Positions 276-55,850 of a stretch of DNA of 64,000 nucleotides are shown here, piece after piece; the first letter of the stretch is position 1, and the number at the start of each line of letters is the position of its first letter. A program made the translations under genes and the position numbers. The stretch is taken from contig OZ024743.1 of assembly GCA_964016885.1 (NCBI GenBank), positions 231,942,001 to 232,006,000 of the forward strand, in the 5' to 3' direction. The stretch comes from Eledone cirrhosa. Taxonomy: Eukaryota. The notes under the pieces were generated by a model. It was not told where the DNA came from and did not search any database. It saw only the letters and a program-made list of their open reading frames with translations.

Positions 276-2347
276 ATGGCTACGAAAAAGAAATTTCATA
301 CGTCACTCCCACTCATTCCGTCTTCTTCCTCAATCATCACTACAGCAGAGAGAAGATTGTCTCTCTCCCTCCCTTCTCTTTCGCAAGTGACGAAAGAAAA
401 GAAAAGTCTCGTGCAAAGCGTGCAAGGTTTCTCCACGACGACGACAGCGACGAAACAGGTGTGCGGGAAATACGAAAACCCAGTTCATTCGTCTGACGTC
501 AGGAATAATAGCAGTAGCAGCCGTAATAACAACAGCAACAGTGACAATGAAAACAACAGTAGCAGCCGCAACAGCATCACCAGCAGCATAAACAACAACA
601 GCATTAGCAGCAGCAACACCAACAACAACCACAGCAACAGCGGCGGAGGCAGTAGTCGTAGTACCTGCAGCAACAACAAAAGTACCAGCAGCTCTGACGA
701 CAACAACAACAGCAGAGAAAAACCAATCTCATTTGCAGGTATTGCGAAAAACTTGGAAACAATCCTCATAACAAATGAGGAATTAGAGGAAGCGAAGAAG
801 ATGGTGACAAAGAACGGACACCGAGCAATCTGCAAGGCAGCGGAAAAATTTTTCGAAACCCAAGAGCACTGTACGGTCACGTACCGTACAGTAAGTACAA
901 AATCCCGTAGGGTGGAAAGAGCCACAGAGGCCCAAATACAAAAAGCCTTGGGGTCTGTGTGGCAGCGGAAAACGCACATCACCCGAGGCAAAAAATATGC
1001 CACCGTAGACGTACTTTTTGCCACACCCCAGGAGGCAAAGGCCCAATCAGTAGTGACCCTAAGGAGCGAGGAAATGGTGTTGGTGCCCTCCTACTGCGGG
1101 CAAAAAATTGTGAGGGTCAAACTGACCCACGTCCCCCCCCCCCCCCCGGAATGACCCCTTCTTGGCTGGCCGCGTCTGTCCTCGTCGGAATCGAGGACAA
1201 AACAACTGTACTGCAAGTACAGAAAAAAGTAAGAGAAGATTGGGTCGGCTCCTCCATTGAGATGCTAATCCAAACCAACCAGGAGTGCATCGAAGCTATC
1301 CCGGATGTGATAGACTTCGATAACGGCACTCAACTGCCCATAAGTGTTGAGGGCAAACGCCCGAAATGCTTTCGCTGTGGATCGAAGACTCACCTCAGAG
1401 CCTTCTGCAACGAGAAGACCCTGAGAAAGGAGAAAACCCCCCTCCTTCCGAATCCGGCTCCACGGCTACCAGCAACAGGACAAGCGGCAACCAGGAACGA
1501 TAGGTCCGTGGCACCCATACCCACTCCACGGAAATCAAAAACAGCAGCAGCAGTGGAAATATTAACAACAACAACAGCAATACCAAATGCAGCTGCAACA
1601 GAGACTCCAGTGCAAATATCACCAACAACAACAAGTGAAAGAGTGGAGCTGGTACCCCTCCCCCACCTCACAGAATCAGACATGGAGTGTGAGGTGGGAG
1701 AGGGATGGCAAAAGGTCGCAAGAAGGCACAAACGCAGAAGCAGCGCATCGTCGCCTTTGAAAAGGGAGGAAAGAAATGAGAAAAGGGTAAAGTCTACTGC
1801 AAAGAGACCCACAGCAGCAACACCACCAACAACATCACCACCCACACTAGCACCACCATCACCACCGGCGACAACCCCACCGCCAACAACACCTTCAACA
1901 CCACCACCACAAGCACCAACATCGCAAACACAACAACAAAACACACACACCCAGCAACAACGACAAGAAAATAGCAGAACCACACCCCACCCCCAGAAAA
2001 ACAAATGCACGGCAATAAATACACACAACAAGAAACTAATGACTTACATAATTGAACACACAGACATTTCACAACAGGACTACATAATACCAGCACCAAT
2101 CAAAACGCCAACTAACATAAGACTGCTAAAAATAGCACAGAAACAATACACAAACATTAAAACGAAATTCCCCAACGCAGTTGGTGATTTCAGGGACCTA
2201 GGAGGAACCATCAATCGAAGAGTATATTCAGACATTCTCTTAGAAGAGCCGACGACCAGCCGAAGGGACGATTCAACGGTCCCTTCACCAGACGATCAAG
2301 TGAAAAGGGATGTAAAAACCATCCCTTCTCTACCAAAAGTACGGTAA
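276..2347 (+). pseudogene. Tx1 ORF1 (gag-like nucleic-acid-binding protein), frameshifted at a C15 run (1133-1147)
   Basis: ORFs 240-1154 and 959-2347 join at the poly-C run; zinc knuckle CFRCGSKTHLRAFC (CX2CX4HX4C); N/S-rich and P/T-rich low-complexity tracts. Confidence 0.85.
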
Positions 2348-2382
2348 GTGGTCTTTCCCATCTTTTCCACTCTATTTTAAAC

Positions 2383-5300
2383 ATGACCTCACTCAGAATA
2401 GGCAGCATAAATGCGCGTGGCATGGGGTCGTCATGGAAGCAGGGTCACCTGCTCAACGACCTCAGGTCACTAAACATAGATGTAGTGGCCATCAGCGAGA
2501 CCAGAATCTCCGAAGCACGGGCCTTCGCACCGATCTTCGGCGGCTACGATGTGTACGCATCTCCCAGCCGTCCTGGATCGGGTGGAGGAGTTGCTGTGCT
2601 TTTTCGGAGAGGTTTGGATCTCGCCATACGGGCCATCTTCCTGGACCCAGAGGGTAAGCTGGTGGTGCTGGACGTGACCAGCGGAGACGGGCAAGCTTTC
2701 AGGGTAGTGGCCGTCTATGCCCCGACAGGAGCAGGGCGGCCTGATTTCTTCCGGCGTCTGGAGACCTTTCTTGGAACGTCCCGCTCTTTAGTGTTAGTGG
2801 GCGACTGGAACGGGATCTGAGATGCACGCTGGGACTGTGTGGGATTAGCGGATAGGGGTGGAGGGTGCAAGAGCCTCACCAACCTGCTCAGGCGTTTTGA
2901 ACTGTCTGACAGGTACCGATTGGATTTCCCGAATGTGCCAATGTGGACTTGGACAAACCGCATAGGGTCATCCAGATCATATCTAGATAGAGTATTTTGT
3001 AGGGAAATAGATAGGTCTAGCATAGGCTGTCCACAATTCAAGATAGTCAGCTACACGGACCACAAATTCGTGACCTGTGTGCTTGACTTAGATAGGCTTC
3101 ATAGACGAGGACCCGGCTACTGGAAGCTAAACGCGTCCTTACCAGCGCGCAAGGCCTACAGAGACCGGATTAGCGAACTAGTTAAGCGGGCGTTGACGGG
3201 GGCCATCGTCAACAACAAGTGGTGGTTTGCTCTGAAAAGAGCGATTAGAATAGAATCGATTAGGTTTAGTAAGGCTTTAGCAATAGAGAAAAATAGAGCA
3301 GAGGGAGAACTTGTTAGAAAATTAGACGAGGCGCTTAGCAAAGGCATTGCGACCGACGTGCTTGCGGCGAAATTGGCCCTTGACCAATTCTTCAATGCAA
3401 AGCACGAAGGCTGCGTTGTCAGAGCTAGGGTGCGTGCTCTCAGACACGAGGGGACGAAAGCCGTTCAATGGGCCCGAGTGGCGGAGGCGCGTCGTGGAAA
3501 CAAAGCCACGATCCGGTCTTTGGTGGACCACGACGGGCGCATGCTACTCGATCCCGGGCAAATGTGTGAAGCTTTTCAGCGACACTTCGCTCAGCTGTTC
3601 GGGGGCAGCGGGGGGCCGGGTAGAGGGATGGACTTTAGTGTCTACCTCGACGGACTGCCGCGGCTCTCGGCCACTGAGGCGAGGTGTTGCGAAAAGCCGA
3701 TAACAGCCGCTGAAGTACGGGAGGCAATGACTGGCTGCACAAGGGGTAAATCGCCTGGTTTGGATGGTCTGCCCTATGAACTTTACGTACAGATGCCAGA
3801 CTTGTTCGGAGGCCTCTTGGCGGACGTCTACTGCAACTGGCAACAGAACGGGAGAATTCCCAGTTCTGTGAGCCGAGGAGCGGTGGCACTGCTGAGAAAG
3901 GATCCGAACAAGGGGGATAACATAGACAATTTCCGGCCCATAACTCTGCTAAACACAGAGTTTAAGATTTTGGCCAAGGTTCTAGCAAAGAGGTTGGCGC
4001 TTGTCGTTGGTGGTCTGGTGGGAGAGGCGCAGACATGCGCCATTCCCGACAGATCCATCCACGACAACCTCCACCTCATGCGATACATCGTAGAGAGGGT
4101 AGCTAGGGAACCTGGCACGGGTGGGTCCTTGATCAATTTAGATCAGTCGAAAGCTTTCGATAGGGTCGACCATCGTTACCTAGCGGCAGTCCTGAGGGCG
4201 GCTGGCTTTGGGCCCGTCTTCAGAGGCTGGATCGCTGCCATGAACAGCGACATATGCTCTGTAGTGAGAGTGAACGGTCACCTGTCGGAACCGTTCAACA
4301 TCATGCGCTCGGTCCGCCAAGGATGTCCCCTCTCGTCCCTCTTGTACGTATTGACTCTCGAGCCATTACTGCACAAACTGGAGACGTTGAGGGGAGTCCC
4401 GCGCGAACTAGGATGCGGAAGATCCGTGTCAGCATATGCGGACGATGTCACCGTAGTGGTGTCGAACGCCAAACACATCGAGGCGATCGGCACTACACTA
4501 AGAGAATACGAAGCGGTGACAGGAGCAATGATCAACCAGGAAAAGTCAGTGGGCCTGCAGCTCGGCACCTGGAGAGGCAGGTCCATGCCGTCCAACAGCG
4601 TCGTCGGGCGCTGGACGGACGGACCGGTTAAATTGCTAGGGGTCTGGTTCGGTCCGGACCTCCAGACGGACAAAAACTGGGACGAGGTGACGAGCAGGGT
4701 GGCTTCTCTCACCCAGAAATGGGCGGAGAGGAAGCTATCCCTGAAAGGTCGAGCGGAGGTGACTAACGCGTGCATCGCGTCTGTCATCTGCTACCGCCTA
4801 ACCGTCGTACCTTGTCCTAAGCCTCGCCTGACTGCGCTGGAGCGTTTGCTCTTTCGCTTTTTGTGGAAGGGACGTGCTCCGATGGTCAGGCGGTCCATCT
4901 GTTGTCAACACCCGCTACGTGGAGGGCTGGGCATGCCGTGGCTGATGATGCGCAGGCACGCGCTCAGGCTACGACATCTCCACCTCTTCCTCGACGGTGA
5001 TCAGGTGTGGTCGCCGTTTGCTAGACGCGTTTTTCCCCAGCTCGTTTCCTTGACGGAGCTGCAGTCCTGGGTAAAGCGAAGACCGAGAGGGAGCGCCTGG
5101 AGACTGGAATGTCTTCAGGCGCTCACAGCCCTCGACCAATCGGGCAATGTGATCGGTGGAAACTCCACCTCGGCGTTCTATAGAGGATTAGTGGAGGGGA
5201 AGAGCGACGACGTACTTGGGGAAACTCTAGGCGTCGACGAAAATCAACTAGCCAATCTCTTCGGAAGAACTTTCGGGCCAGGGCCTATGGACAACTTCCA

Positions 5301-5801
5301 GAAATCTCTGGCCTGCAGTGCTACCGAGGAGCCTTGCCAGTTCGGGATAAACTCTACAGGCATGGAGGTGCCGTCAGCCGGGCATGTCCGAGATGCGCGC
5401 AGGGCGACGAAACCGTCCTGCACTCACTCGTCCAGTGTCCGAAAATTGCTGACTTGTGGGTTTATGTCGAACACCTGCTGTCGCGTTTAGGACGGATCCA
5501 GCTATCATCTGAGTCTATCGTGAGGATTGCCCCGCCCTCCTCCTTTAGCCGGGAAGGGCAGGCAGTTTTTATCTGTCTGGTGGCCATGGCGAAAGAGATA
5601 GTGTGGTGGACACGTTTGAAAGGGCTGAAGACGAGCACTTACCTCTTCGGTGATGCTCTGATTGACTTTTTCAAATTTCATTTGAAAAGGAAAATCAGAG
5701 TAGAGAAGGAAGTGCTCTCTTCCCAGCATTTTGTTGAAAGATGGGTGAGAGAAGCAAGAATGGCCCGAGTGAATGGGCCGACTCTGAGTATATATCTGTA
5801 A
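2383..5801 (+). pseudogene. Tx1 ORF2: APE endonuclease + reverse transcriptase + C-terminal CCHC
   Basis: SINARG, ISET, VYAP, GDWN, YLDR, YTDH (APE); KSPGLDG, NFRPITLLN, DQSKAFDRV, RQGCPLS, AYADD (RT); CPRC..ETVLHSLVQC. Lesions: TGA at 2818-2820 (TTA in copy 2) and a 1-nt deletion near 5315. Confidence 0.93.
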
Positions 5802-6075
5802 ACTAAAGGTGGAAAACTGGGAGAGGGCACTTGCCTTGGTGGTCAGGGTCATTGTGGCTTTTTACTGGGCTTTCTCCACAAATGTCCCTCCGAAGTCTCC
5901 CCCCTATTGGGGAATTTTTTTTTTTTTTTTTTTCATTGTTATTTTCATTGTTATTTTTGTTACATCCTCTGTTTTTGTTTTTTTACACGCAGAAATGCCC
6001 ATTTGTACCGTCCTGCATTGTCCTGCACTGTCCTTAATGTCTACTTTATGTAAACCCTTGTGGTTAATAAAGAAA

Positions 6076-6116
<41 letters not shown>

Positions 6117-6320
6117 GGCCACCTACGTAGTAAATCGTATTATCGTGAGCTCCGCAAAGGTTTGTCGTTTAAAATTGCCATTTATGGAAATTTTTTATTG
6201 TTAACTGTATATAAGTGCACATACATTGTTTCTGAAAAGGACACTCAAAAAGATCGGGGACTTGAGCCCAAAATTTAAACTTTTCGAATTATCAAACAAA
6301 AATGTTTCTTTGAAAAAAAT

Positions 6321-8200
6321 CATGGACGACTCAGCGTCACACCTTCCTCACAAACTACCACCTCACACCGACACCACCATTGTAAATATTACTACGTTTG
6401 GCAACACTAAAAATATAAGCAGTAACAATATTTTAAATTTGTCTCATGCTGACATTCATTTCCCGGCATTAACAATGACTGCAGGTGTTGAAGCCGCCAC
6501 CCCTACCACACCACAGCGACAACAGAAACAAAAGAAAGAAATGAATTCTCTCGTGACATCGAAATGAATTCACCCAAAATGAACTCTTCCACACCGAACA
6601 ACACTGACGCCACCACAACCACAACTGAAACTAAAATTAACAATAACATAAATAACGGTAACAACAACAGCAACAGCAACAATGAGAAATAGAAAACCAC
6701 CCTGTCTTTTGCCAGAGTAGCAAAAAAATGCGAAGCAATCCAGTAACTCAGGAGGAATTAGAAGAAGCCAAAGAATGGTAAAGAAAGATGGGTATAGGGT
6801 CATCCTCACCCCCACGCCCACCTAATAAAATGTAGCATCGGCGCCTATGCACCGTGTCTTATCGGACGATTAACATAAAATCGCGCCGAATGGAACGGGC
6901 ATCCGAGTCCCAAATCCAAAAAGCTTTGGGACATGTGTGGGCAAAAAAACCCCCACATCAGACGTGGGCCGAAATATGGAACTGTGGACGTGTCCTTTGG
7001 AACAGCACAGGAGGTCAGAGAACACTCCATGGCCCTATTACGAATTGACGAATTCACACACGTCCCAAGCTATTGTGGCCATCGAAATTCCCTGGCTAAT
7101 GGTTGACGTCCTCGCAGGCATCGAGGCCAACACCAAGATAATCGAAATAGCGAAAGAAAAGCAGCAGAACTGGTCCGGATCTGGGATGGAGCTCCTGATC
7201 CAAGCGGACCAAAAAAGCATTGAGGAGATCCCAGAGGTAATAGACCTCACTGACTGCAGCCACCTCACCGTAATCGTCGAGGAAAGAAGGCCTAGGTGTG
7301 TCGTTTGTGGTGAAGGACCCCACCTAAGGGCTTTCTGCCCTCAGGCTAAAAGGTTGAGGCCACCTCTCCCACCCACACCAGTGACTCAACCATCAACACC
7401 ACCAGCAGCAGAAATGGCAGCAACAACAGAAGCAACTGTAACAGTAACAACTACAGCAACAGTAGCAAAACCAACACCAACACCACCCAACGCGGCAGAA
7501 CTAGCACCAGCGCCTACACCATCCACTACGCCACAACCCAAACCAACGCCTGTGGAGGATTTTCCACTCCCCGACCTATCCCAACTGGAGACAGATTGTG
7601 AGGACGAGGAGTCGGAAACGGTATCAGGAAAAAAAAGAAAGAAAAAGAAACGAAAAAAGAAAAAATCCTCTTCCTTCCCCCTCCAAAAACAAAATAAATA
7701 GGGAAACAAATAAACTATCAAACAAAAAAGTTAAGACAGATATGCCACCATCCACACCAGCATCACCGGCCCCATCACCACAAACACCAATACCATCACC
7801 ATCATTAACCCCAACACCACCATCACCTACATCACAAAAGTCACCAAAAAGCGAAACAGAAACAAACCCACAACAAACGCAAACAAAACAAAACAACCAA
7901 AACGATACACACTAAACAGCAATAAATTGGAACAACCAATTATTACACTACATTCAACACAACACCAGCATCACAGAAAAAGACTACACAACAACCCAAA
8001 AGTTCACATCACCTCCACACATACAAATCACTCGCATCACACAGAAAACGTACACGACACTAAAACAAAAATTCCCCAAAGACATCGGAGATTTCCGACA
8101 AGCACGCTCCAGGAGGATTTATAAGGACATCCTTCCGGAGTAGGCCAGAAGCAGAGAAAAGGATGGAGAAACCATCCTTCCTCTACGAGAAGTAAGGTAA
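6321..8200 (+). pseudogene. Tx1 copy 2 ORF1 remnants
   Basis: Fragments YRTINIKSRRMERASESQIQKALG and RPRCVVCGEGPHLRAFC are homologous to copy 1 ORF1; several frameshifts; start approximate. Confidence 0.75.
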
Positions 8201-8234
8201 GTGGTCTTTCCTATCTTTTCCACTCCAATTCAAC

Positions 8235-11200
8235 ATGACGTCACTCAGAATAGGCAGGATAAATGCACCTGGCTTGGGGTCGTCATGGAAGAAGGGTCAC
8301 CTGCTCAATGATCTCAGGTCACTAAACATAAATGTAGTGGCCATCAGTGAGACCAGAATCTCCGAATCACTGGCCTTCGGACCGATCTTCGGCGGCTACG
8401 ATGTGTACGCATCTCCCAGCCGTCCTGGACCGGGTGGGGGGGGGGAGTTGCTGTGATTTTTCGTAGAGGTTTGGATCTCGCCATACGGGCCATCTTCCTG
8501 GACCCATAAGGCAAGTTGGAGGCGCTGGACGTGACCAGCGGAGACGGGCAAGCTTTCAGGCTAGTGGCCGCCTATGCCCCGACAGGAGCAGGGCGGCCTG
8601 ATTTCTTCCGGCGTCTGGAGACCTTTCTTGGAACGTCCCGCTCTTTAGTGTTAGTGGACGATTGGAACGGGATCTTAGATGCCGCTGGGACTGTGTGGGA
8701 TTAGCGGATAGGGGTGGAGAGTGCAAGAGCCTCACCAACCTGCTCAGGCGATTTGAACTGTCTGACAGGTAGCGATTGGATTTCCCGAATGTGCCAATGT
8801 GGACTTGGACAAATCGCATAGGGTCATCCAGATCATATCTAGATAGAGTATTTTGTAGGGAAATAGATAGGACTAGCATAAACTGTCCACAATTCAAGAT
8901 AGTCAGCTACACGGACTACAAATTCGTGATCTGTGTGCTTGACTTAGATAGGCTTCATAGACGAGGACTCGGCTACTGGAAGCTAAACGCGTCCTTACCA
9001 GCGCACAAGGCCTACAGAGACCAGATTAGCGAACTAGTTAAGCAGCCGTTGACGGGGGCCATCGTCAATAACAAGTGGTGGTTTGCTGTGAAAAGAGCGA
9101 TTAGAATAAAGTCCATTAGGTTTAGTAAACCTTTAGCAATAGAGAAAAATAGAGCAGAGGGAGAACTTGTTTGAAAATTAGACGAGGCGTACTTGCGGTG
9201 AGATTGGCCCTTGACCAATTCTTCAATGCAAAGCACGTAGGCTGCGTTGGCAAAGCTAGGGTGCGTGCTCTCAGGCACGAGGGGACGAAAGCCGTTCAAT
9301 GGGCCCGAGTGTGGGAGGCGCGTCGTGGCAACAGAGCCACGATCCGGTCTTTGGTGGACCACGACGGGCGCTACTCGATCCCGGTCAAATGTGTGAAGCT
9401 TTTCAGCAACACTTCACACAGCTGTTCGGGGGCAGCGGCGGGCCGGATCGAAGGATGAACTTTAGTGTCTAGCTCGACGGACTGCCGCGGCTCTCAGCCA
9501 CTGAGGAGGAGTGTTGCGAAAAGCCGATAACAGCCGCTGAAGTACGGGAGGCAATGACTGGCTGCACAAGGGGTAAATCGCCTGGTTTGGATGGTCTGCC
9601 CTATGAACTTTACGTACAGATGCCAGACTTGTTCGGAGGCCTCTTGGCGGACGTCTACTGCAACTGGCAACAGAACGGGAGAATTCCCAGCTCTGTGAGC
9701 CGTGGAGCTGTGGCACTGCTGAGAAAGGATCCGAACAAGTGGGATAACATAGATAATTTCAGGCCCATAACTCTGCTAAACACAGAGTTCAAGATTTTGG
9801 CCAAGGTGCTAGCAAAGAGGTTGGCGCTTGTCGTTGGTGGTCCCGACAGATCCATCCACGACAACCTCCACCTCATGCGATACATCGTAGAGAGGGTAGC
9901 TAGGGAACCTGGCACGGGTGGATCCTTGATCAATTTAGATCAGTCGAAAGCCTTCGATAGGGTCGACCATCGTTACCTAGCAGCAGTCCTGAGGGCGGCT
10001 GGCTTTGGGCCCGTCTTCAGAGGCTGGATCGCTGCCATGCACAGCGACATCTGCTCTGTGGTGAGAGTGAACGGTCACCTTTCGGAACCGTTCAACATCA
10101 TGCGGTCGGTCCGCCAAGGATGTTCCCTCTCGTCCCTCTCGTACGTATTGAATCTCGAGCCATTACTGCACAAACTGGAGACGTTGAGGGGGGGGGGATG
10201 ATCCGTGTCAGCATATGCGGACGATGTCACCGTAGTGGTGTCGAACGCCAAACACATCGAGGCGATCGGCACTACAATAAGAGAATACGAAGCGGTGACA
10301 GGAGCAATGATCAACCAGGAAAATCAGTGGGCCTGCAGCTCGGCACCTGGAAAGGCAGGTCCATGCCGTCCAACAGCGTCGTCGGGCGCTGGACGGACGG
10401 ACCGGTTAAATTGCTAGGGGTCTGGTTCGGTCCGGACCTCCAGATGTACAAAAACTGGGACGAGGTGACGAGCAGGGTGACTTGTCTCACCCAGAAATGG
10501 TCCGAGAGTAAGCTATCCTTGAAAGTCGAGCGGAGGTGGCTAACGCGTATATCGCGTCCGTCATCTACTACCGCCTGACCTCGTACCTTGTCCTAAGCCC
10601 CGCTTGACTGCGCTGGAGCGTTTGCTCTTTCGATTTTTGTGGAAGGGACGCGCTCCGATGGTCAGGCGGTCCATCTGCTGTCAACACCCGCTACGTGGAG
10701 GGCTGGGCATGCCGTGGCTGATGATGCGCAGACACGCGCTCAGGCTACGACATCTCCACCTCTTCCTCGACGGTGATCAGGTGTGGTCGCCGTTTGCTAG
10801 AGACGTCTTTCCCCAGCTCGTCTCCTTGACGGAGCTTCAGTCCTGGGTCAAGCGAAGACCGAGAGGGTGCGCTTGCAGACTGGAATGTCTTCAGGCGCTC
10901 ACAGCCCTCGACCAATCGGGCAATTTGATCGGTGGAAACTCCAGCTTGGCGTTCTACAGAGGATTAGTGGAGGGGAAGAGCGACGACGTACTTGGGGAAA
11001 CTCTAGGCGTCGACGAAAATCAATTAGCCAATCTCTTCGGAAGGACTTTCGGGCCGGGGTCTATGGACAACTTCCAGAAATCCCTGGCCTGGCAGTGCTA
11101 CCGAGGAGCTTTGCCAGTTCGGGATAAACTCTACAGGCATGGAGGTGCCGTCAGCCGGGCATGTCCGAGATGCGTGCAGGGTGACGAAACCGTCCTGCAC

Positions 11201-11573: not shown

Positions 11574-11983
11574 ATTAAAGGTGGTAAACTGGGAGAGGGC
11601 ACTTGTCCTGGTGGTCAGGGTCACTGTGGCTTTTAATGGGCTTTATCCACAAATGTATCTCGGAAGTCTCTCGGAAGCGTGTTTTTTACACGCAGAAATG
11701 TCCGTTTGTACTGCCCTGTATTGTCCTGTACTGTCCTTAATCTCTACTTTATGTAGACCCTTGTGGTTAATAAAGAAACCATTATTATTATTATTATTAA
11801 TATTATTATTATTACTAATAATCATGTTATTGCAGTTACTAGTAGAATTTACAACAACCATTCATCAAATGCACTATGACCAACATGATAAATGACGCAT
11901 TATTTTAATACAATTTTTAATGAAATCTTTCGTAAACATTGATAATAAATTGGTTGTTTGCATTCTAAATTATAACTATATAA

Positions 11984-12261: not shown

Positions 12262-14094
12262 GTGTTAAGCTCGCAGTCACCTCCTCTAACCACCTCATTG
12301 AAAGATATCGAAAATGTCGTCAGTTTTGAAAATACGATGTCGGACGTTGATTGTAACACCAACACTAACACAAACACCAATAACATGCAAATTATAAACA
12401 ACACCAACCAGAACAACAACAACAACAACACCACCACCACCAACAACAACAATGATAACAACAACACCACCAACAACCACAGCAGCAACACGAACAACTC
12501 CACAAACAAGGAAAACATTTATTTTGCTCAAACCGTCCAAAAGACGGAACTGTTTACATACCTTGACATTTCCAATGCTAGGGAAATGTTAAGCGATGCA
12601 AAACAGTATGTAACTTTTGGTGAGAGTGGTGCTTTCAGCATCACTTCTCCTCAACAGTTACGCAGAGAAACTGTTCTAAAAACAGTAATTTTTAGAACGG
12701 TTTCAAATGTGTCGAAAAAACCAGTTCAGTTATCCCAAAACGATATTGAACCTTGTTCTGAAGAATTCCATGAAGGATATTGCCTTCATCCAAAAAGGGA
12801 AACTTTTTGGAAACCTTTCGGTGTTGTTGAAAGACCAATTGACAGCACAAAAATATTCTGTATCGCCGATTATGTCCCTCCTTTACACATTTTCCCCCAC
12901 ATATATGGGAAAAAGAACTAAAAAAATTAAAATGTTGAACATTGCAACAAATGTAAACGTCTGGTGGATTCTAACTGGCTTCATCGATTTCGACGAAGAC
13001 ACCATCATTTCGGTGGGAAAGTCCTCCAAAGGCACATTCAATGGTACAAGCATGGAAGTTCTGGTCCAAATGAGGCCAGAACGGATAGCTTAAATACCCA
13101 CAACGTGTGCCTCTGGATGGCATTTCACACATAAACATTTCTCTTGAAGGTAGGCGGCCTTCATGTTACCACTGTTTAAGCAGAGGTCACCTGAAGGCTT
13201 ACTTTCCTCAGTTAACTAAAAAAAAAGAGGCACTACTGCCAACACCCAAAACAACAACACAACCACCACCACCACCACCACCACCACAACAACAACAACA
13301 ACACGCAAACACAACCAAAACAAGAACAACAAACCAACCTGCAAGCACAGTCCCATCCAACCCCACTCCACATAAAACCACTGCAAAAACACCCACAAAC
13401 ACAACAGCTCCCCAAAACATGCCCCTTCCAAATAACACAGACACCACAACGGACGAGGCCCCCACATCATCACCAAGTGCTGATGAGGGAGAGCCTTTCC
13501 TTTCGAAAAGAAAGAAGAAAAGACACCACAAGAACAAAAAAAACAACAAATATCACTACAAACATACAACCACCAACACAAACAACACACACATTACAAA
13601 CAAAAAACCCCCGTCCCGAAAACGAAACCACGACATCACTCCAAACACAAACACCTACAACAAAACGAAAGCTCCCACAAGAACAACAGACAAAAACCAC
13701 CGCAACACAACAAGAACATTACACATACATAAACAGTAAAAACAAAACTTTAATGGAGGTCATCTCCAACGACCTTTCGGTGAAAATCGAAGAGAAAACC
13801 TTTTAGAACTGTGTAGACAAACCTAATTTAAAGATGATTAGGGTCCCTACGGACACCTATAAGTCTTTAAAGGAAAACTTTCCTAAGGATGTGGGTAATC
13901 CTTGTGTTAAACCCATTAACCGCGTCCTTTTAAAACGTTTCCCCACCCTCACCCCAGACACAGCCAGTCCAGACACCCCCAGCCCACCAAACATCTGCGT
14001 CCCCACCCCGCCGGAAACCACCAGCCACCCAGACAACTCAACTAACACCCCCATGGAAACCGTGCGGCCTGATCCCCGGGAGACGAAGAGGTGA
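12262..14094 (+). pseudogene. Tx1 copy 3 ORF1 remnants
   Basis: N-rich tract, ISLEGRRPSCYHC knuckle and P/T-rich tail, spread across several frames. Confidence 0.72.
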
Positions 14095-14131
14095 GTGTTT
14101 TCTTCTCCTCTTTTAACTTTTCAGAACCAAC

Positions 14132-17100
14132 ATGGCCAATATAAGAGTTGGGTGTGTGAATATACGCGGCCTGATGATGCCCGGGAAACAGGGCAAACTC
14201 TTAAACGACCTCAGGTCGCACAGTATGGATGTAGTAGCCATTTGCGAGTCCAGGATCCACAGCGAGCGACAGTTGGCCCCCATCTTCGATGACTTTGAGA
14301 TCTACGCATCTCCCTGTCAGCCGGGGGGTGGGGGCGGCGTTGCCGTTTTGCTGCGGAAACATCTGGGCCTCGTAACACAGACGGTACATCTGGACGTTGA
14401 CGGTAGTGAAGCTAGAGGCTTCAGGCTGGTGGCTGCATATGCCCCATCCGGGACACCGCGGCCAGACTTCTTCAAACGTCTAGAGACTTTTCTGGGAACG
14501 TCCCGCTCCTTGCTTTTAGTGGGGGAGTGGAATGGAATCCTAGATGCACGTTGGGACTATGTGGGAGCATGTCCCGATAAAGGGGGGTGTAACATCCTCA
14601 CACACTTAATCGGCCGATTTGACCTGGCCGATAGATATCGACTAGATTTTCAGACTGTGCCACTGTGGACGTAGTCTGACCACAGCGGAACATCTAGATC
14701 GTACCTAGATAGGGTTCTAGTTAGAAATAAGGATAGGGACATGTTAAGCTGTCCACAAATATTCATGGTTGCCTATTCAGATCACAAACTAGTGACCTGC
14801 ATGGTCAACCTTGATAGAACCCATAGACAAGGACCCGGCTACTGGAAGCTGAACTTGTCGTTACCGACATGCAAAGTCTACAGTAGACGGATTAGCACTT
14901 TAGTTAAACAGCACTTGACAGGGGCCATTGTCACAACAGATGGTGGTACTCTCTCAAGAGGGCAGTTAGATTAGATTCGTTAATCGTTTGTAAAGAATTA
15001 GTGTTATATAGAAATAGAACCGAGAAAGAACTGGTAGATAAAGTAGAAGAGGCAATTAGAAGTGGTAGCCAGCGTGCTAGCAACGAGAACGGCCTTGGAC
15101 CAGTTCTTCGACGCAAAGCATGAGGGCTGCGTTTTCAGAAGCAAAATACGTGCTCTGGGAAACGAGGGAGTCAAAGCTGTTAGCTGGGCCCGAGTTATGG
15201 AGGAAAAAAGTGGCAACAAGTCCACGATTCGGTCTTTGAAGGACCAAAACGGACGCGTGATATGTGAGCCGAAGCAGATTTGTGCGGCCTTTCAGCGGCA
15301 ATTTGCTCGGCTGTTCGGGCAGGGCGGCGCGCCAACAGGGTCTATGGATTTCGGTCCATACCTCGACGGCCTACCGCGACTCTCGGACAGCGAGGCAAAG
15401 TTCTTCGAAAAGCCGATTTCAGCCGCTGAGATAGGGAACGCGTTGAGCCAATGCGGCAAACACAAATCTCCGGGTCTCGACGGTCTACCTTACGAATTTT
15501 ACGTAGCAATGCCGGACTTAATCTCCGGTCTCCTGGAAGCGGTCTACTGCAACTGGCAACAGAACGGGAGAATTCCCAGTTCTGTGACCAGGGGTGTAAT
15601 CACACTAATCAGGAAGGACGTGAATAAGGGGGATGACATAGGCAACTTCCGGCTCATAACTCTGCTAAACACAGAGTTACAGATTTTGGCCAAGGTGTTG
15701 GCAAAGAGGCTGGCGCTTGTCATCGAGAACCTGGTTGGAGAAGCGCAGACATGCGCAATCCCGACCAGGTCCATACACGACAACCTCCACCTCATGCGAT
15801 ACATTATAGAGAGGCTAGGGTTTAAACCCGGCTTCGTTGGGGTTCTGATCAACTTGGATCAGTCTAAGGCTTTCGATAGGGTTGACCATCGTTACCTGGA
15901 TGCGGTGCTCGAGGCGGCAGGCTTCTGATCCGTGTTCAGGGGCTGGATTGCTGCAATGCAATACAGCAACATTTGCTTAAGGGTTAAGGTGAAGGGCTAC
16001 CTCTCGGAGCCGTTCCATATCACGCAATCCATTCGACAGGGATGCCCTCTCTCCTCCCTTCTGTACGTATGACTCTCGAGCCACTACTTCGGAAGTTGGA
16101 GCTATTGCAGGGCATCCTTCTGGAACCGGGACTACGAAAAGCGGCGTTGGCCTACGCCGACGACGTGACAGTAATGGTGTCGAGCGCCTCGCAAATCGAG
16201 GAAGTCGGCACCTTACTGAAGGAATACGAAAGATTCACAGGAGCGAAGCTGAACCGGGACAAGTCCATCAGTTTGCAACTCGGATCGTGGAGAGGCAAAC
16301 CGATGCCTTCCGATGGCGCCGTCGGAGGCTGGACGGAAGGACCAGTAAAGCTGCTCGGGGTCTGGTTTGGTCCGGACCTCCAGGTAGAGAAGAACTGGAA
16401 CGAGGTGTCGGCCAAGATGTTTGCACTCACCCAGAAGTGGGCCGAGCGCAAACTATCCTTGAAAGGTCAAGCGGAGGTGGCGAACACTTTTATAGCGTCC
16501 GCCATCTACTACCGCTTGACCGTCGTGCCTTGTCTAGCCAAAACGCTCGCCAAAATGGAGCGCGCGCTCTTCCAATTCCTTTGGAAGAGGCGAACTCCTT
16601 TGGTGAGAAGATCCATCTGCTGCCAACGCCCTTCCAACGGAGGGCTGGTGTTGCCGTGGCTGACGATGCGCAAACACGCGCTCAGGCTGCGGCATCTTTA
16701 CGTATTCCTCACCGGACAACCGGTGTGGGCCCCGTTCGTGAGGCGAGCCTTCCCATGATTCGTCTCGCTGACCGAGCTGCAGTCCTGGGTCAAGCAAAGA
16801 CCGAGGGAAATGGGCGACTGGCACATCGAATGTGCTCAGGCGCTCACAGCCTTCTGGCAGGGGGACCCGGCGATCAGTGGAGACTCCACTTCGTCATTCT
16901 ATAGTGGGTTGATCCGCAGCAAGTGCGACGACGTGCTCTGTGAAACTCTGGGCGTAGAGGAACACGAACTGGCCAGTCTGTTCGGTAGGACCTTCCGCTC
17001 GGGACCGATAGACAACTTCCAAAAGTCCCTGGCCTGGCCTGGTACTCCTACCGAGGAGCTCTACCAGTTCGAGACAAGCTCTACAGACATGGGCGCCCGG

Positions 17101-17540
17101 GCAGGGACCCTGCAAAAAAGATCTGTCCAAGATGCGTACGAGACGAAGAAACCGTCGCGCACGCATTCATACACTGCCCGGGCGTCACCGACCTGTGGGG
17201 CTATGTGGAACGACAAGTGTCGGGGGTGGAACCAATCCAGTTGATCACCGAGTCCCTTGACATAATCTAACCGCCACCCTCCTTCAAAAACGAAGGAGAG
17301 GCGGTTTTCCTTTGTGTGATAGCTATGGCGAAAGAGATTGTATGGTGGACAAGTTTGAAAGGGCTGAGGTCAGACACCTAACTCTCCGGCCAACAACTGA
17401 TTCTTTTTTTCAAATACCACTTTAGAAGAAGAATCAGGATGGAGAGAGAGGTGCTGTACCCCAGCAAGTTTTATGAAAGGTGGGTGAAAGTGGCGAGAAT
17501 GGCCCGAGTGAATGGCCCTTCTCTCTATATCAGCCTGTAG
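14132..17540 (+). pseudogene. Tx1 copy 3 ORF2 (APE-RT)
   Basis: CVNIRG, YSDH, KSPGLDG, DQSKAFDRV, AYADD; several stops and frameshifts. Confidence 0.9.
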
Positions 17541-17820
17541 GTTGAGGAAAAAGAGGAGGAGAGGAAAGGAGTACAAACTCTTCGTACTCCTGGAGATGAA
17601 GGTTGCACATTTTTTTTTCGGGGTTATGTGTTACCCATATGTAATGTTTCCCCCTATTGGGTAAAATCGCTTAATTTTTAAATTGCATTTGTGATAATAT
17701 TTTACACGTTTTTATTGTATGTAAACTTCCCCCTTTGTATTTGTCCCCTTATTTTGTGCCCCTGTGACTAATAAAGAAACATATCTATCTAACTATCTCT
17801 CTATCTCTCTATCTCTCTAT

Positions 17821-18200
17821 TTAGGTACCACTTTAGAAGGAGAATCAGAGTGGAGAGAGACGCACTGCACCCCAGTAAATTTACTGAAAGGTGGGTGAAT
17901 GTGGCAAAAATGGCCCGAGTGATTGAGCCTTCTCTGTATATAAACCTGTAGGTTGAAGAAGAGAGCAAAAGCAAGAAAGGAGCACTTGCACAACACGCTC
18001 CTGAAGTTGAGGGTTGTTCTATCTACGGGGTATTAAACAACCCATTTGTGACGCCTCCCCCCTATTGGGGATTTCGATTGTTAAATTTGTTTCTTTCAAT
18101 ATATTTACACGATTGTATGTAAAATCCCCGGCATATGTCTGTGTTTTGTCCCTTTTTCTTTTGCTCCCTTGTGGCAAATAAAGAAATCTATCTCTCTATT
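17821..18200 (+). mobile_element. 5'-truncated Tx1 3' end (copy 4)
   Basis: Repeats the ORF2 end (taccactttagaagg...cctgtag), the CCCC-TATT-GGGG motif and AATAAAGAAA-tctatctct tail of copy 3. Confidence 0.85.
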
Positions 18201-18240
18201 TAAATGTTATTCTAAAATGTGACTTCAGTTCACTTACTGT

Positions 18241-18650
18241 TTACAAATTCTTATTATTGGTGGCTATGGCTAAAGAGGTCATGTGGTCGCTGCGTTTGAA
18301 ACGGATGAAGTCGACGAAGCCTTCATTAGGTATTTCAGTTTTCACTTGAAGAGGAAAATCAGAGTGGAGAGGGAAGTGTTGCCTTCTATCCAATTTGTTG
18401 AGAGGGTAATGAGAACGGCGATCATGTTCCGAGTGAATGGGCTTGTCTTGAGTATACACCCGTGGATTGGTGTAGAACAACTGGGAAGGGACACTTACTC
18501 TAGCAGACAAGATGACGGTGGCGGTTTAGGTGTTTTCTCCACAAGTGACCATCGGAGTCTCCACATTTTAAGAAAATTTGTTGCTTGAATTTTTAATGTT
18601 TGTTTTCTTAGTTTTGTTATAAATTTTATTTTCCAAAAAAAAAACAATGT
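18241..18650 (+). mobile_element. 5'-truncated, older Tx1 3' end (copy 5)
   Basis: AMAKEVMW and FHLKRKIRVEREVL...RVNG are homologous to the ORF2 C-terminus. Confidence 0.8.
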
Positions 18651-41449: not shown

Positions 41450-41543
41450 ACCCCTTGAGAAGATCGGCTATTTAAATACCAGGATAAATTTTCATTTAGT
41501 CCAGAATTAGCCGTCGAAACGGCTTGAGCTCAGCTGTCGGGGT
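41450..41543 (+). ncRNA. Type I hammerhead in the 5' pLTR (U3-A8 core)
   Basis: ACCCC-TTGAGAA-GATCGGCTA..TAGCCGTC-GAAAC-GGCT..AGCT-GTC-GGGGT. Confidence 0.8.
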
Positions 41544-41728
41544 CTTACTGGTTCCTATTACCCACTCTACTACCTCAAGTATTGAGTACTTTGGTGCGTT
41601 ATGGTCCACCTGGTTCCTTACCACATTTCCTTCGTTATCTAGCTCCTACTCCCGTAGTAGAGCACTTTCCGACCCTACCACACCGTATCCAGACTTTTCC
41701 GCTAAGCTCAATTCATTTCACCCGCACC

Positions 41729-43897
41729 ATGCGAAAACACAACATTGACTTCTCTACCAAGAACATCCCAATCCCACCGAAAAAACTTTACCTTCGGATG
41801 CTCACGCAAAAAATCGATCTATTTGCGAAAAAAATTAGATGGAGAACTTTTTTCTATGACAGATATTGCGACAACCAAGACTTCGGCACCAAGGAGAGAT
41901 TCGGATTTATTACCTACAAATCTCCGCCCCTGAACCCCTTGCTCGCACCCTTCGAGAATGACCTCTTTCAACTGGTCAAGAACATTAAATTTAAACCCAG
42001 ACACAACTGATTCCTACAAAAACTCCGTAGCAACTTAACAGAGTATGATAACACAAATGACATCATGGTGCATTCGGATAAAACTGGGAACCTATACTTT
42101 GTCAACCCTGACAGATACCACACACTGATCAGGAGCAGCCTAAACTCCACCTATAAAAAGGCCAACCACTCTTGCATCGAGGACATAAATCGAGATGGAC
42201 AACAAATTACCTCCAGCCTCGGGGTCGCCGACCGCACGGAACCTCTAGACCCACGGACACCATACTTCACACTGAAGGACCATAAATCCGATTTTGACCG
42301 TAAACCCTCTATCAGGCTTATTAAACCAACGAAGTCCGACATAGGGAGAATCAGCAAAAAAATCCTAGACCGCGTGATACCAAAAGTCAAGCAACACACC
42401 CGACTTAGCCTATGGATCAACACCCAGGAAGTAATCTCCTGGTTCAGCAATATGGAGGATAAACGAGAAACTAAATTCATACAGTTCGACATAGAGAGCT
42501 ACTATGCTTCAATCACCTTACCGCTACTTACTGCCGCCTTGGACTTCGCCGAAACACTTGTGCCCATCACCGACCAGGAAAGAAAAATCATCCTCCACGC
42601 CAGGAAGACAGTCTTACTCTTTGACGACTCTAAATGGATAAAAAGAGCTCCCGACTCACCCTTCGACGTCAGCATGGGCGTCACGGATTCGGCGGAGGTC
42701 ACAGATCTTATAGGATTATTCCTAATAGCCAAACTCACTGATATGTTTCCTGCATTCGGTGGTGGATTGTACCGTGATGATGGGCTCCTTACCCTTAAAG
42801 GGTACAACCCCAGTAGTACAGATCGGGTCCGGAAACAATTAATCAGATTCTTCCGCGACTGGGGATTTAAAATAACCCTACAAACGTCCCTGACCAGAGT
42901 AAACTTCCTGGACGTGACCCTCGACCTCGAAAACGACCTGTACTACCCATACAGCAAACCTAATGACAATCTGCACTACATCCACCGCCGATCAAACCAT
43001 CCTAGGAACATCACAAACAACCTGGTCAAAAACATCTCCCTCCGCATATCCCGTTTGTCAGCTAATGAGCGGATATTCGATGAACATGCGCCTTATTACA
43101 ACCAGGCCCTCAAGCGGAGTGGTTTCTGGGAGGAAATATCCTACTGTCCAGCTCCCATTAGCAGAACCAGCAGGAGACACCGCCGCTCACGCAATGTAAC
43201 ATGGTTCAATCCTCCCCACAACGCAGAGGTGACAACTCCCATCGGGAAACTATTCTTTAGGCTCATTGAAAAACACTTCCCATTACAACACCGCTACCAC
43301 AACATAATTAAGAAAAATACCATCAAACTCTCTTACAGCACTACACCAAACTTCGCACAAAACATCGTCTCCTCTAACAACAAAAAACTCAACCCCGATG
43401 GCAGAAATAACCTAAATAGCAGTGGAGAACCGACCAGGAGGTGTAACTGCCCGGATAGATCTATTTGCCCACTCGACAATAGATGCAGAGACCGTAATGT
43501 GATCTACCAGTGCAACGTGAGGACGGATACCTCCAACAAAGCCTATATAGGACTTACCGCATGTGACTTCAAGACCCGGCTATACCAACATATACATACC
43601 TTCCGAAACCCGGCTCGGCGTCACGCCACTACACTTTCGGGCCACATATGGTACCTCAAGGACAACAACATCACCTATGATCTCACTTGGAGATTACTGT
43701 CCAGAGCCAATTCTTACACGGGAGGACGCCGTCCGTGCAATTTATGCTCGGAGGAAACTTTACAAATGCTGTTTCCGACGGACCAACTCCTAAACAAGAA
43801 ATATGAACTGGTTACTGCATGTAAACATAGATTGCGTAGGACTTACCTCGCCCTCAAACCCCATAATGACACGGGGGGAGGTAGACTAGGGCTATAA
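41729..43897 (+). pseudogene. PLE reverse transcriptase + GIY-YIG endonuclease; one in-frame TGA (42008-42010)
   Basis: N-terminus FSTKNIPIP..IRWRTFFY, FDIESYY, GLYRDDGL, VNFLDVT, CNC..CPLDNRC, VIY..YIG, CNLC; ORFs 41582 and 42065 are in the same frame. Confidence 0.9.
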
Positions 43898-52335: not shown

Positions 52336-52469
52336 ATATATATATATGTGTGCGTGTGTGTTGGTATGTGTATTATCTACGTATGTTTGAATCCATATAT
52401 ATATGTATGTATGTGTGTATGTAGTATGTACGTATCTATGTATGGATCTATGTATGTATGTATGTATGT

Positions 52470-55456
52470 ATCGGAAGGCATAGGGTGGGAGAGTGTAACA
52501 ACAATGGTAAGCTCCTGCTGCAGAAGTGTGAGGAGCTTCATCTGTGTGTTACCAACACCATGTTCCAACAAAATAACAAATTCAAGACCACATGGATGCA
52601 TCCTGCATCTAAGAAATGGCATCTTTTGGACTACGTCCTAGTCAGGATGCGTGACAGACAGGATGTGCAGTGTGTTCGTGCTCTCCGTGGAGCTGAGTGC
52701 TGGACGGACCACCGCCTGGTACGCGCAAAAGTGAAACTAATCACTAAATGTAAAATCCGGGCTCCTGGTGTTGCCCTGCCCAAAAGATTGAATGCTGCTC
52801 GTCTTAAGGATAAAAATGTGAAGAGGACATTGGAAAAAGAGATGCAGGCTGCAGATCTTGGTGAGGATTGGCCGACCCTTAAAAAGTGGGTTTATGATGT
52901 AGGCAGGCGTGTTCTGGGATTGGTGCAGAGAAAACATCAGGACTGGTTTAATGAGAATGATGTACATATAGAAGACTTGTTGGCTGATAAGAGGCGTGCC
53001 CTGTCACACTACTTGACGGCAAAACCACAGGAGAGAAATACGTTGCCTGTGGAACTCAGGGATGTAAAATCACGTGTTAGGCGGAGTCTTTCTCAGATGA
53101 AGGATCAGTGGTGGAGTGAGAAGGTTGGTGAGATACAAACTGCGTCACATCCCAATAACACAAAGCTGTTGTAGAGTCTCTTGTGTGAGGTTTATGGACC
53201 GTCTTCTTCTCTGATGACACCGCTTCGCAGCAAGGATGGCAAAGAACTTCTTCGTGACTCGCAAGGAAGTATACGATGGTGGCGAGAGCACTTTGATGAT
53301 CTTTTGAATCAGCCGTCTGTCGTCAGTGAAGCTTTCCTCAATCTCATTCCAGAAAGTCCTGTGAAAGTAACTCTCGCAGAACCTCCGACGCTTGTGGAGG
53401 TTGCAGTGGCTATTTCGAAGCTGAACAGTGGAAGATCTCCAGGTATGGATGGCATACGTGCTGAGCTCCTACAATATGGTGGTGAGAGACTCCTGCAACA
53501 TCTTCACTCTTTGTTTGGCAGGATATGGGCTAATGAATCCGTACCTGAGGACTGGAGAGATGCAGAAATGGTGGTCTTGTACAAGGGAAAGGGTAACAGG
53601 AATGATTGTAGGAACTACAGAGGTATATCATTGCTTTCTGTCGTAGGGAAAGTTTTATGTAGGGTGCTTCTGGACCGTCTGCTGACACACATTGCAGATT
53701 GTGTTCTTCCTGAAAGTCAATCTGGTTTTCGTGCTGGACGCGGCACTACTGATATGATCTTCTCAGCTAGACAGCTCCAGGAGAAGTACATGGAACAAGG
53801 CTTGGATCTGTATCAGGTTTTTGTCGATCTTACAAAAGCTTTCGATACTGTTAACAGAGATGCATTATGGAAGGTTCTCCAGAAACTTGGTTGCCCTGAT
53901 AAGTTCCTTGCTTTAGTTAGGTCTTTCCATGACGACATGAAGGCTTGGGTTAATGTCGGAGCCTATCTCAGTAAAAAATGGTGTGAAACAGGGGGATATT
54001 CCAGCACCGACCCTGTTTGCCATATACTTTGCAATGGTTTTCTGTATTGCATTCAGAAATTGCGAGCATGGTGTTTACATCCGATATCGAACCTCAGGCA
54101 GCATATTTAACATCAGGCGCTTTGCTGCGAAGACAAAAGTATTTACATCAATCATAAGAGACCCCTTGTATGCAGATGATTGCGATCTTGTAGCGCACAC
54201 AGAGAGTGATATGCAGCACATTTTGAATGTATTTTCTGACGCTTGCACTGCCCTAGGATTGACTGTCAGTCTCAAGAAAACCGTCGTCATGTACCAACCT
54301 GCCCCTGGTAAGCAGTACACTGAACCAAACATCTATGTGTATGGCAAACGACTTGGAGTGGTTGATCAGTTTGTCTACCTGGGAAGCACTGTCAATCGAT
54401 ACAGCAACCTTGACAGAGAAATTTCACTTAGGATTAGGAAAGCAAGTGATGCTTTCGGAAAGCTAGAAAGGCGACTCTGGGGTCGACGAGACATATGCAG
54501 GAGGACAAAGGAAAAGGTGTACAGGGCATGTGTGCTCTCTTGTCTTCTTTATGCCTGCGAGACCTGGGTCACATATCGACACAACCTTAAGCAATTGGAG
54601 CGTTTCCATCAGATGTGTCTCAGAGGGATCCATGGCGTTCACTGGAGGGACCACATCAGTGATGTCGAGATTTTGGAAAGCTCTATGGGTGACAGTATAG
54701 AAGCTCTTGTGCTTAAGCAACGACTCCGTTGGAGTGGTCACCTTGCCAGGATGAAGGATTCTAGAATACCAAAAACAACTCTTTTATGGAGAGTTGGTTA
54801 AAGGAAAACGACCGCCAGATAAAACAAAAAAGAGGTATAAGGATTCCTTGAAAGCCTCTCTGAAAAACGCTAACATCTCTGCTGATACATGGGAAAATAT
54901 TGCTGCTGATCGTAATAAATGGAGAAAGACTGTATATGAGGGAAAAGTTGCCTTTGAGGCATCTCGAATCGAATACGAGAAAGTAAAGCGGGATGTGAGG
55001 AAGAGCATTGCTGTTGCACTTCCAGACGGCGAGGGTCCTCCTATGGTGCTGACATGCAACGTCTGTGCGAGACTCTGCCTAAGCAAAGCTGGACTCGAAA
55101 GTCATCTTCGCAGTCATAAAGTAAGACCAGTGGTTGACTACCAGGCTGCTGTTGGAGATGCTGCGCATCATGCTTGCCAAACATGTGGTAGAGAATGTAA
55201 ATCAGTAGGAGGGCTCAAGCGACATGCAAAAGTACACGAACTCCAACCACAGCCGACTATTCCCAGTGAATGTTTTGGTTGCCGACTCTGTGCAAGACAA
55301 TTTAAATCATTGGCTGGGCTAAAAAGCCACATTCGATCGCAGCGCTGTTAGTTGCTATCGCGTGTGTGTGTGTGTATAGATATGTTTATGTGTGTGCGTG
55401 TATGTGTATATATATGTATATGTATATTATTATTGTTGTTGTCGTTATTATTATTG

Positions 55457-55491
<35 letters not shown>

Positions 55492-55660: not shown

Positions 55661-55677
55661 ATGTATGTTTGTATGTA

Positions 55678-55841: not shown

Positions 55842-55850
55842 TGTATGTAT

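Follow-up and report, generated by a model that had tools for sequence, protein, structure and literature searches.

The window, the whole 64,000-nt stretch analysed here, contains three copies (copies 1-3) of a large and young group of Tx1-like LINEs, with 12,603 matches to the ORF2-start motif in the Eledone genome. All three copies are damaged by stops or frameshifts that split their ORFs. In copy 1, ORF1 is broken by a frameshift near a C-run (about 1134-1147), and ORF2 has a premature stop (2818-2820) and a further frameshift downstream. Intact relatives exist, with an ORF1 of 697 aa and an ORF2 of 1,139 aa. ORF2 matches the Pfam domains Exo_endo_phos, RVT_1 and zf-RVT, corresponding to an N-terminal APE endonuclease, a reverse transcriptase (RT) and a C-terminal zinc-binding region. 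The separate ORF1 upstream gave no Pfam match above the cut-off; a CX2CX4HX4C knuckle can be read from the sequence of the intact 697-aa version. In most of the full copies printed, the 3' end passes into an (ATT)n, (TATC)n or related repeat, as read by inspection rather than from a formal count of flanks. We class the group as Tx1-like on its domains, two ORFs and microsatellite-type ends, rather than on an RT tree. The Tx1-clade elements Kibi and Koshi are likewise animal LINEs with an APE endonuclease, an RT and two ORFs, and likewise show microsatellite ends such as (ATT)n or (TATC)n and head-to-tail arrays (PMC4494074). Copies 1 and 2 have a common spacer and ORF2 lineage, 95-97% identical.

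Table 1. Features of the three LINE copies in the window (a slash marks the putative exon end or the join; energies in kcal/mol).
Feature	Position	Strand	Remarks
Copy 1 ORF1	276..2347	+	CCHC zinc knuckle, low-complexity C-terminus; stop TAA 2345-2347
Copy 1 chimera join, 2300/2301	2291..2312	+	Sequence identity to L154 vs L063
Copy 1 donor-like motif ACG/GTAAGT (2344)	2341..2349	+	Overlaps ORF1 stop
Copy 1 predicted helix, 5' strand (donor plus pyrimidine spacer)	2343..2371	+	26 predicted pairs
Copy 1 ORF2	2383..5801	+	APE endonuclease, RT, zf-RVT
Copy 1 predicted helix, 3' strand, just past ORF2 stop	5808..5835	+	-40.7, z -5.9
Copy 1 AATAAA signal and (ATT)n tail/target	6066..6117	+	
Copy 2 donor AAG/GTAAGT (8197), spacer, ORF2 ATG 8235, first CAG	8194..8248	+	
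Copy 2 3'UTR strand, predicted partner of donor and spacer	11580..11609	+	-31.4, z -3.2
Copy 3 donor GAG/GTGAGT (14091), spacer with TTTTCAG acceptor-like site (14124), ORF2 ATG 14134	14088..14136	+	
Copy 3 3'UTR strand, predicted partner of donor and spacer	17539..17584	+	-42.9, z -6.0

A donor-like motif at the end of ORF1

A splice-donor-like motif is conserved at the end of ORF1 across diverged subfamilies and in all three reading phases. AG/GTRRGT was found in every sampled multi-copy subfamily, and a donor-like match is present at 165 of 171 junction loci, with three of the six exceptions being loci fetched as mutants. Among the sense-strand GT sites of an element (about 280-330), the donor ranks first or tied in 13 and second in 2 of 15 full-length subfamily copies. 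The ORF1 stop itself is variable (TAA, TGA or TAG, at +2, +6 or further downstream) while the motif is kept. The donor lies in phase 2 in ten, phase 1 in three and phase 0 in one of 14 multi-copy subfamilies. The presence of the motif at this position is more than chance. A preliminary description of the locus had reported such sites at all three ORF1 ends, with the stop inside the motif, and both observations hold, the stop lying at +2 to +4. The phase 2 position and the Arg codon that it stressed are also present in copies 1-3, but are not independent evidence since a stop within AG/GTRAGT makes both automatic.

The same description proposed that a spliced micro-intron fuses ORF1 to ORF2. 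The underlying arithmetic is correct in the window. An AG-free pyrimidine spacer follows each donor, the earliest AG belongs to a CAG whose last base is 2396, 8248 or 14124, and taking out 53, 52 or 34 nt leads in frame into ORF2. For copies 1 and 2, which share one spacer and ORF2 lineage, the acceptor AG is not independent evidence either, as it forms part of the endonuclease's Arg5 codon (the copy 1 CAG falls in ORF2 codons 4-5). If any AG is accepted, 9 of the 14 multi-copy subfamilies regain the frame, and for the copy-3 clade no acceptor-like site across ORF2 plus 3'UTR scores above the spacer CAG. Yet neither the phase and frame comparison nor the search for intron-less copies bore the proposal out. 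Besides the three donor phases, 5 of 14 multi-copy subfamilies, some with intact ORFs, have a first AG that is out of frame, and an in-frame YAG is the first acceptor in only 3 of 14, exactly the three found in the window. The spacer CAG is absent from the sister L167 and from L207, and the AUG is kept in a conserved CCAAC context (ATG in 21 of 22 representatives). At 34-61 nt, the introns would be short by the standards of most animals. Spliced RNA would retain the RT and the 3' tail, yet none of 1,607 copies in the copy 1 family is intron-less (upper bound about 0.2%), against a spliced fraction of about 2% in full-length human L1 (PMC5860796). Matches for the other families probed included no intron-less copies either, with totals for the L091 and copy-3 families uncounted. 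A protein database search for the family returned two proteins, and no longer relatives of ORF1 residues 150-400 were among 469 candidates from a database in which the family is barely represented. The X4 and X5 contigs span the junction unspliced, and none of the joints listed (15; 15 of 17) lies at the donor, both in 8 of 24 runs of unrecorded type, so the contigs count neither way. The fusion protein is probably not real, and splicing of a 34-53-nt intron to produce it seems highly improbable.

Two further readings of the junction were rejected. Readthrough or frameshifting into ORF2 fails because the stop-to-start distance (-28 to 43 nt) takes all frames. For trans-splicing or an ORF2 message from an upstream donor, no AG precedes the AUG except in the copy-3 clade and in a few singletons.

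Predicted pairing between the donor and the 3'UTR

The donor plus spacer is complementary to the first 30-50 nt past the ORF2 stop, with subfamily-specific co-variation, and is predicted to pair with this start of the 3'UTR at a distance of 3.4 kb. The predicted helix thereby brackets ORF2, ending within a few nt of both its start and its stop. Predicted energies range from -22 to -46 kcal/mol. In 12 of 15 subfamilies the helix outscores every other window of its element, and likewise in 12 of 15 none of 200 shuffles equals it. Cognate strands average -36.7 compared to -30.3 for non-cognate strands (permutation p 5e-5 over 15 subfamilies, a value that overstates independence because the subfamilies are related), and only 9 of 15 subfamilies have their cognate 3'UTR among the top 3. 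In copy 1, none of 253 other windows scores better. The gain over local structure in copy 2 is -10.4, short of the best control at -16.1. The predicted helix is present in all three window copies and in five of five testable copies of the L207 family (seven tried); three degraded copies have weak helices (z -1.3 to -1.9). Across the 18 newly fetched loci used in the helix test, the ORF2 end was not found by pattern in nine, the ORF2-start motif was missing in four and the ORF2 end was misplaced in one; seven of the failed loci were re-tested. The 3'UTR bases facing the donor differ among subfamilies, hence pairing alone is insufficient to explain the fixed motif. A local hairpin that most representatives are predicted to form over the donor was rejected as mostly compositional, with 5 of 22 beating spacer shuffles (p<=0.05).

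Chimeric joins at the donor boundary

Upstream of its join, copy 1 is 90-93% identical to L154 and 56-57% to L063. Past the join, spacer and ORF2 are 95-97% identical to L063, compared to 50% (spacer) and 87% (ORF2) to L154. Judged by these identities, the copy 1 family is an L154-lineage ORF1, ending at the donor exon end, joined after an AG of the copy-2 (L063) lineage. This chimera founded a family of over 1,600 copies. A second join of the same donor/AG kind was found, and both lie exactly at the donor exon end and just after an AG, which suggests that the donor is able to splice. Rare splicing from the donor likely created hybrid families, including the copy 1 family. Spliced LINE RNA is known to have been retrotransposed and recorded in the genome as human L1 SpIREs (PMC5860796). 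SpIREs, though, are spliced from a donor in the 5'UTR of a single element and prove to be dead ends, whereas here a splice-like join connects two elements at the ORF1 end. The joins share a 2-nt AG microhomology, thus template switching may be their origin instead. The copy 1 join could also stem from a 5-nt microhomology plus a small deletion.

Possible roles of the donor and the helix

We tentatively suggest, at slightly less than even probability, that the ORF1-end donor is a U1 docking site, normally unspliced, which the element's own 3'UTR is predicted to mask once transcription is complete. This favoured reading matches a secondary suggestion of the preliminary description, U1-site regulation with unspliced RNA as the template. 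U1 snRNP would dock at the donor during ORF2 transcription and shield the nascent RNA, which is A-rich, from being cleaved and polyadenylated too early. The 3'UTR strand would then displace U1, freeing the terminal poly(A) site and export and leaving the bicistronic RNA unspliced. ORF2 translation would rely on termination followed by re-initiation, and the terminating ribosome would melt the helix. Rarely, in read-through RNA of head-to-tail arrays, the donor would splice to an AG of the element that follows, exchanging ORF1. Binding of U1, formation of the helix and protection from polyadenylation are all predictions from sequence. In one subfamily, an intact ORF2 begins at an ATA overlapping the ORF1 stop, which fits re-initiation. 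Counting against the docking reading, ORF2 contains only 0-2 AATAAA/ATTAAA hexamers per element, and most hexamers lie upstream in ORF1, at a rate explicable by A-rich composition. The complete scheme, a self-timed switch in which docked U1 is stripped by a 3'UTR 3.4 kb away, ORF2 is looped and translation-gated, and tandem elements swap ORF1 by splicing, is possible but rather more doubtful.

Parts of this scheme have precedents. At the foamy virus major splice donor, polyadenylation is suppressed by bound U1, and at the 3' end an alternative RNA fold keeps U1 from binding (PMC3694450); a structure covering the donor is likewise predicted here. Foamy virus involves retroviral LTRs and local structure, in contrast to a LINE with a predicted helix in the 3.4-kb range. 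The Arabidopsis Ty1/Copia element EVD, source of the shGAG RNA, has a strong and conserved donor close to where its structural-protein gene ends, and U1 guards the full-length RNA (PMC5580714). EVD has a defined and used intron and acceptor, whereas the Eledone elements have no conserved acceptor and splicing was unseen in sequence data. L1 and SART1, which use termination-reinitiation, have a similarly short inter-ORF spacer, and ORF2 is likely made from unspliced bicistronic RNA (PMC5972666, PMC5381506). Vertebrate L1 spacers have no common structure, and the word 'splice' is absent from the main text of that account (PMC5381506). The parts of PMC4494074 consulted for Kibi and Koshi describe no ORF1-end donor, nor an ORF2-bracketing helix of the kind predicted for the Eledone elements. 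Our literature search, which left subscription papers, Repbase reports and supplements outside its scope, found no description of such a donor or helix in a LINE.

The donor might alternatively be spliced in a regulated manner to an acceptor far downstream, in ORF2 or the 3'UTR, as in EVD (PMC5580714), yielding an ORF1-only message that sets the ORF1p:ORF2p ratio, with the helix tuning the frequency. Such splicing would account for the placement of the donor at the ORF1 end and its free phase. The chimeric joins suggest that the donor can splice, and some subfamilies have good acceptors in the 3'UTR or at the ORF2 stop. However, a crude acceptor score identified no strong acceptor at a conserved position, the top site being in the 3'UTR, at the ORF2 stop, in the spacer (copy-3 clade) or inside ORF2 (the rest) depending on the subfamily. 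The predicted helix also hides the donor instead of exposing it. None of 1,607 copies is ORF2-deleted right after the exon end (exons starting with GT are not testable), nor do the 207 exon ends of fetched loci include an ORF2-deleted continuation. ORF1-only RNA lacking the RT is expected to leave few genomic copies; splices that remove the RT could occur despite these counts. We consider an ORF1-only message rather unlikely. Less likely still is a translation control element, in which the helix around ORF2 gates re-initiation or passes new ORF2p to the 3'UTR, and a termination context or cytoplasmic factor, not U1, keeps the donor-like letters. The closing of the predicted helix a few nt from the ORF2 start and stop, a spacer length varying over all frames and the ATA start in one subfamily would all agree with this, and coupled re-initiation in SART1 depends on downstream structure (PMC5972666). 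Against translation control, the motif survives a shift of the stop to +6 or +37, and the donor boundary is the exact site of two chimeric joins. The motif variants also correspond to common donor hexamers.

The U1 docking reading addresses how a long bicistronic LINE RNA escapes splicing and cleavage yet stays exportable, and how a low rate of ORF2 translation is achieved. The conserved donor and the co-varying predicted helix around ORF2 offer precise mutations for testing. ORF1 replacement recurs in LINE evolution and is usually attributed to template switching. If the interpretation holds, the exact donor/AG joins would make splicing of read-through RNA a further mechanism of ORF1 replacement, and would reveal a spliceosome-driven route to new LINE families.

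Tx1-like elements and the donor at the end of ORF1

The three head-to-tail elements in the window are ordinary Tx1-like LINEs. APE endonuclease, RT and zf-RVT domains were detected, AATAAA plus a microsatellite closes each of copies 1-3, and all three carry damage. The genome of 3.0 Gb holds 12,603 matches to a degenerate ORF2-start motif and 941 more to a variant without the AGR codon; judging by a SINE-like repeat, the host is probably an octopus, and for Octopus vulgaris the consulted part of PMC13282606 reports 13 recently active L1-Tx1 families. Intact relatives encode an ORF1 of 697 aa and an ORF2 of 1,139 aa separated by a 35-nt spacer, and some sit in tandem arrays with a period of 6,081. 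The Tx1-like fragments adjoining copy 3 fit elements inserting into each other's microsatellite tails. A second type of long RT-like ORF lies beside Tx1-like copies at two loci (L085 26-1207, L087 6210-7730) and is near-identical between them.

Positions of features in the window
Feature	Position	Strand	Remarks
Chimeric join, copy 1	2300/2301		hybrid of two lineages
Donor-like motif, copy 1	2344
Donor-like motif, copy 2	8197
Donor-like motif, copy 3	14091
Two Tx1-like 3' fragments	17817-18600	+	downstream of copy 3, same orientation
Penelope-like element (reading of translation)	41528-43897	+	RT-like then GIY-YIG-like region; one stop separates two long ORFs; no Pfam match at E 0.01
Degraded LINE, presumably RTE-like	52425-56290	+	RVT_1 matches

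A sequence check of copies 1-3 confirmed the donor-like sites at the ORF1 ends, the AG-free spacers, the first CAGs and the in-frame joins to ORF2 listed in the preliminary description. A collection of 171 distinct junctions was grouped into 33 clusters, 15 of them with at least two members. We tabulated 22 real representatives (endonuclease DNA identity 0.60-0.97, median 0.70), omitting 11 clusters that comprise an L207-group duplicate, an older member of copy 1's family, a chimera, an unrelated match and single degraded or deleted copies. Donor invariance among the representatives is partly by construction, because junction sampling was anchored on the motif. In unanchored checks, a donor-like match was present in 165 of 171 loci (three of the six misses were fetched as mutants), and as a U1-type site the donor ranked first or joint first in 13 of 15 full elements and second in two, out of about 280-330 GT sites per element. 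The stop within the motif varies between TAA, TGA and TAG, giving GTAAGT, GTGAGT or GTAGGT. The L091 family is large (16 among the first 100 ORF2-start matches listed), yet has no copy with a changed G+1, an absence that may be due only to youth.

Proposed splicing across the ORF1 stop

Removal of a micro-intron of 53, 52 or 34 nt had been proposed to fuse ORF1 to ORF2. Neither donor phase nor acceptor is conserved across subfamilies. Among 14 tabulated multi-copy subfamilies, the donor lies in phase 2 in ten, in phase 1 in three, whose stop is at +6, and in phase 0 in one, whose stop is at +37. Nine of the 14 have an in-frame first AG, mostly as AAG from the Arg5 codon; a first AG that is both YAG and in frame occurs in only three, exactly those in the window. 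Some copies in out-of-frame subfamilies retain long open ORFs (L196/L197, ORF1 of 644/643 codons; L161, ORF1 of 625 and ORF2 of 1,141; L242, ORF1 of 627; L248, ORF2 of 1,172). With our own crude acceptor score, no conserved acceptor was found: the best site differs in position by subfamily, and high-scoring acceptors common to several subfamilies fall within ORF2 coding sequence. The sole point favouring fusion is that the spacer CAG is the top acceptor in the copy-3 clade (L033, L197, L198), but L197 itself is not in frame, and in L167 and L207 this position reads CAC.

A fusion RNA would retain RT and the 3' tail, and genomic re-copying is expected, as for spliced human L1 RNAs, which the consulted part of PMC5860796 counts at 131 of 6,609 full-length L1. 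No intron-less copy was found among the families and fetched loci probed. In copy 1's family (0 of 1,607), the exon-end 25-mer is followed by G in 1,596 copies and by another base in 11; these 11, and all seven with G then not T, retain the spacer and differ by point or 1-2 nt changes. This test is blind only to exons starting with GT. An acceptor-side probe gave 29 matches, every one with the spacer. Searches of the L091 family returned 0 and 1 matches and of the copy-3 family one, each match being a point mutant. All fetched DNA together contains 207 exon ends, of which 175 run on into a donor; a single chimera accounts for 30 of the remaining 32, and the last two are another chimera and a point mutant. 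We consider micro-intron splicing into an ORF1-ORF2 fusion highly improbable.

Copy 1's family is itself a hybrid. Upstream of its join, identity is 90-93% to the L154 lineage and 56-57% to copy 2's family; downstream, spacer and ORF2 are 95-97% identical to copy 2's family. The join places an L154 donor exon end before sequence following a CAG 45 nt upstream of a copy-2-type donor. In a second, independent chimera, L095, the exon end resembles that of the copy-3 clade (83% for the best match upstream, the true parent being unsampled). Its downstream part is 95% identical to L193 and starts after a CAG that precedes the L193 donor by 23 nt. Both joins are out of homologous register, with AG the only sequence in common. 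Spliced read-through RNA from tandem arrays would be the simplest account of both; template switching is the alternative. The locus L173 combines an L097-type junction with a copy-2-type 3' end and represents another recombinant or a nested copy.

A predicted helix with the 3'UTR and the probable role of the donor

In 15 subfamilies, the 30-50 nt immediately downstream of the ORF2 stop are predicted to form a helix with donor and spacer, with energies of -22 to -46 kcal/mol (-40.7, -31.4 and -42.9 for copies 1-3; -39.5 to -43.3 in five testable copies of the L207 family). In 12 of the 15, no other element window beats this partner, and likewise in 12 of 15 none of 200 shuffles matches the energy. 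Cognate 3'UTRs are predicted to pair better than those of other subfamilies (mean -36.7, against -30.3; double-centred -6.0) and rank in the top three for nine of 15 subfamilies. The permutation p for this preference is 5e-5, a significance that kinship among the subfamilies inflates. Three degraded copies have a weak helix (z -1.3 to -1.9). Gains over local structure in copies 1-3 are -22.1, -10.4 and -45.9, against -13.3, -16.1 and -21.5 for the best controls. A local hairpin over the donor is predicted too, but is mostly compositional. In L162, L193, L198 and relatives, a local GGAGCAC/GTGCTCC inverted repeat in the 3'UTR overlaps the helix strand and could compete with the long-range helix.

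The modelled helix would explain the pyrimidine spacer without need of a 3' splice site. The donor needs a constraint of its own, because the bases opposite vary and helix coverage, full in some subfamilies, is partial in others. The most likely reading, which we hold tentatively, is that the donor is an unspliced U1 docking site. U1 would dock without splicing and shield the nascent RNA, the element tail would mask the donor once the RNA is complete, and occasional splicing would be a by-product. For the U1 duplex the prediction is about -10 to -14 kcal/mol, much less stable than the helix. As described in the parts consulted, the donor of foamy virus (PMC3694450) and U1 in EVD (PMC5580714) would follow the same working principle as the proposed docking site. 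Splicing of the donor into an ORF1-only RNA is an unlikely though serious competitor. The predicted helix closes near ORF2 start and ORF2 stop alike. A donor/helix unit acting in translation only seems less probable still. The docking of U1, the pairing inside cells and the RNA products invoked are predictions from sequence and folding models. The element type was already known as Tx1-like LINE; in the literature searched we found no description for LINEs of the donor at the ORF1 end, the helix or the splice-like chimeras.

ORF2 start

In all seven copies of the L164 group, ORF2 opens with an ATA that overlaps the ORF1 stop; Met first appears at 35 or 57. L161 and L164, near 11.26 and 12.37 Mb (G000:C1), keep ORF2 intact despite ATA for ATG. 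Judged by sequence, this start would fit AUG-independent re-initiation as proposed for L1. Re-initiation at L1 ORF2 is put forward in the consulted part of PMC5972666. The ATA-start subfamily (L161, L164) is a natural test case for AUG-independent ORF2 translation.
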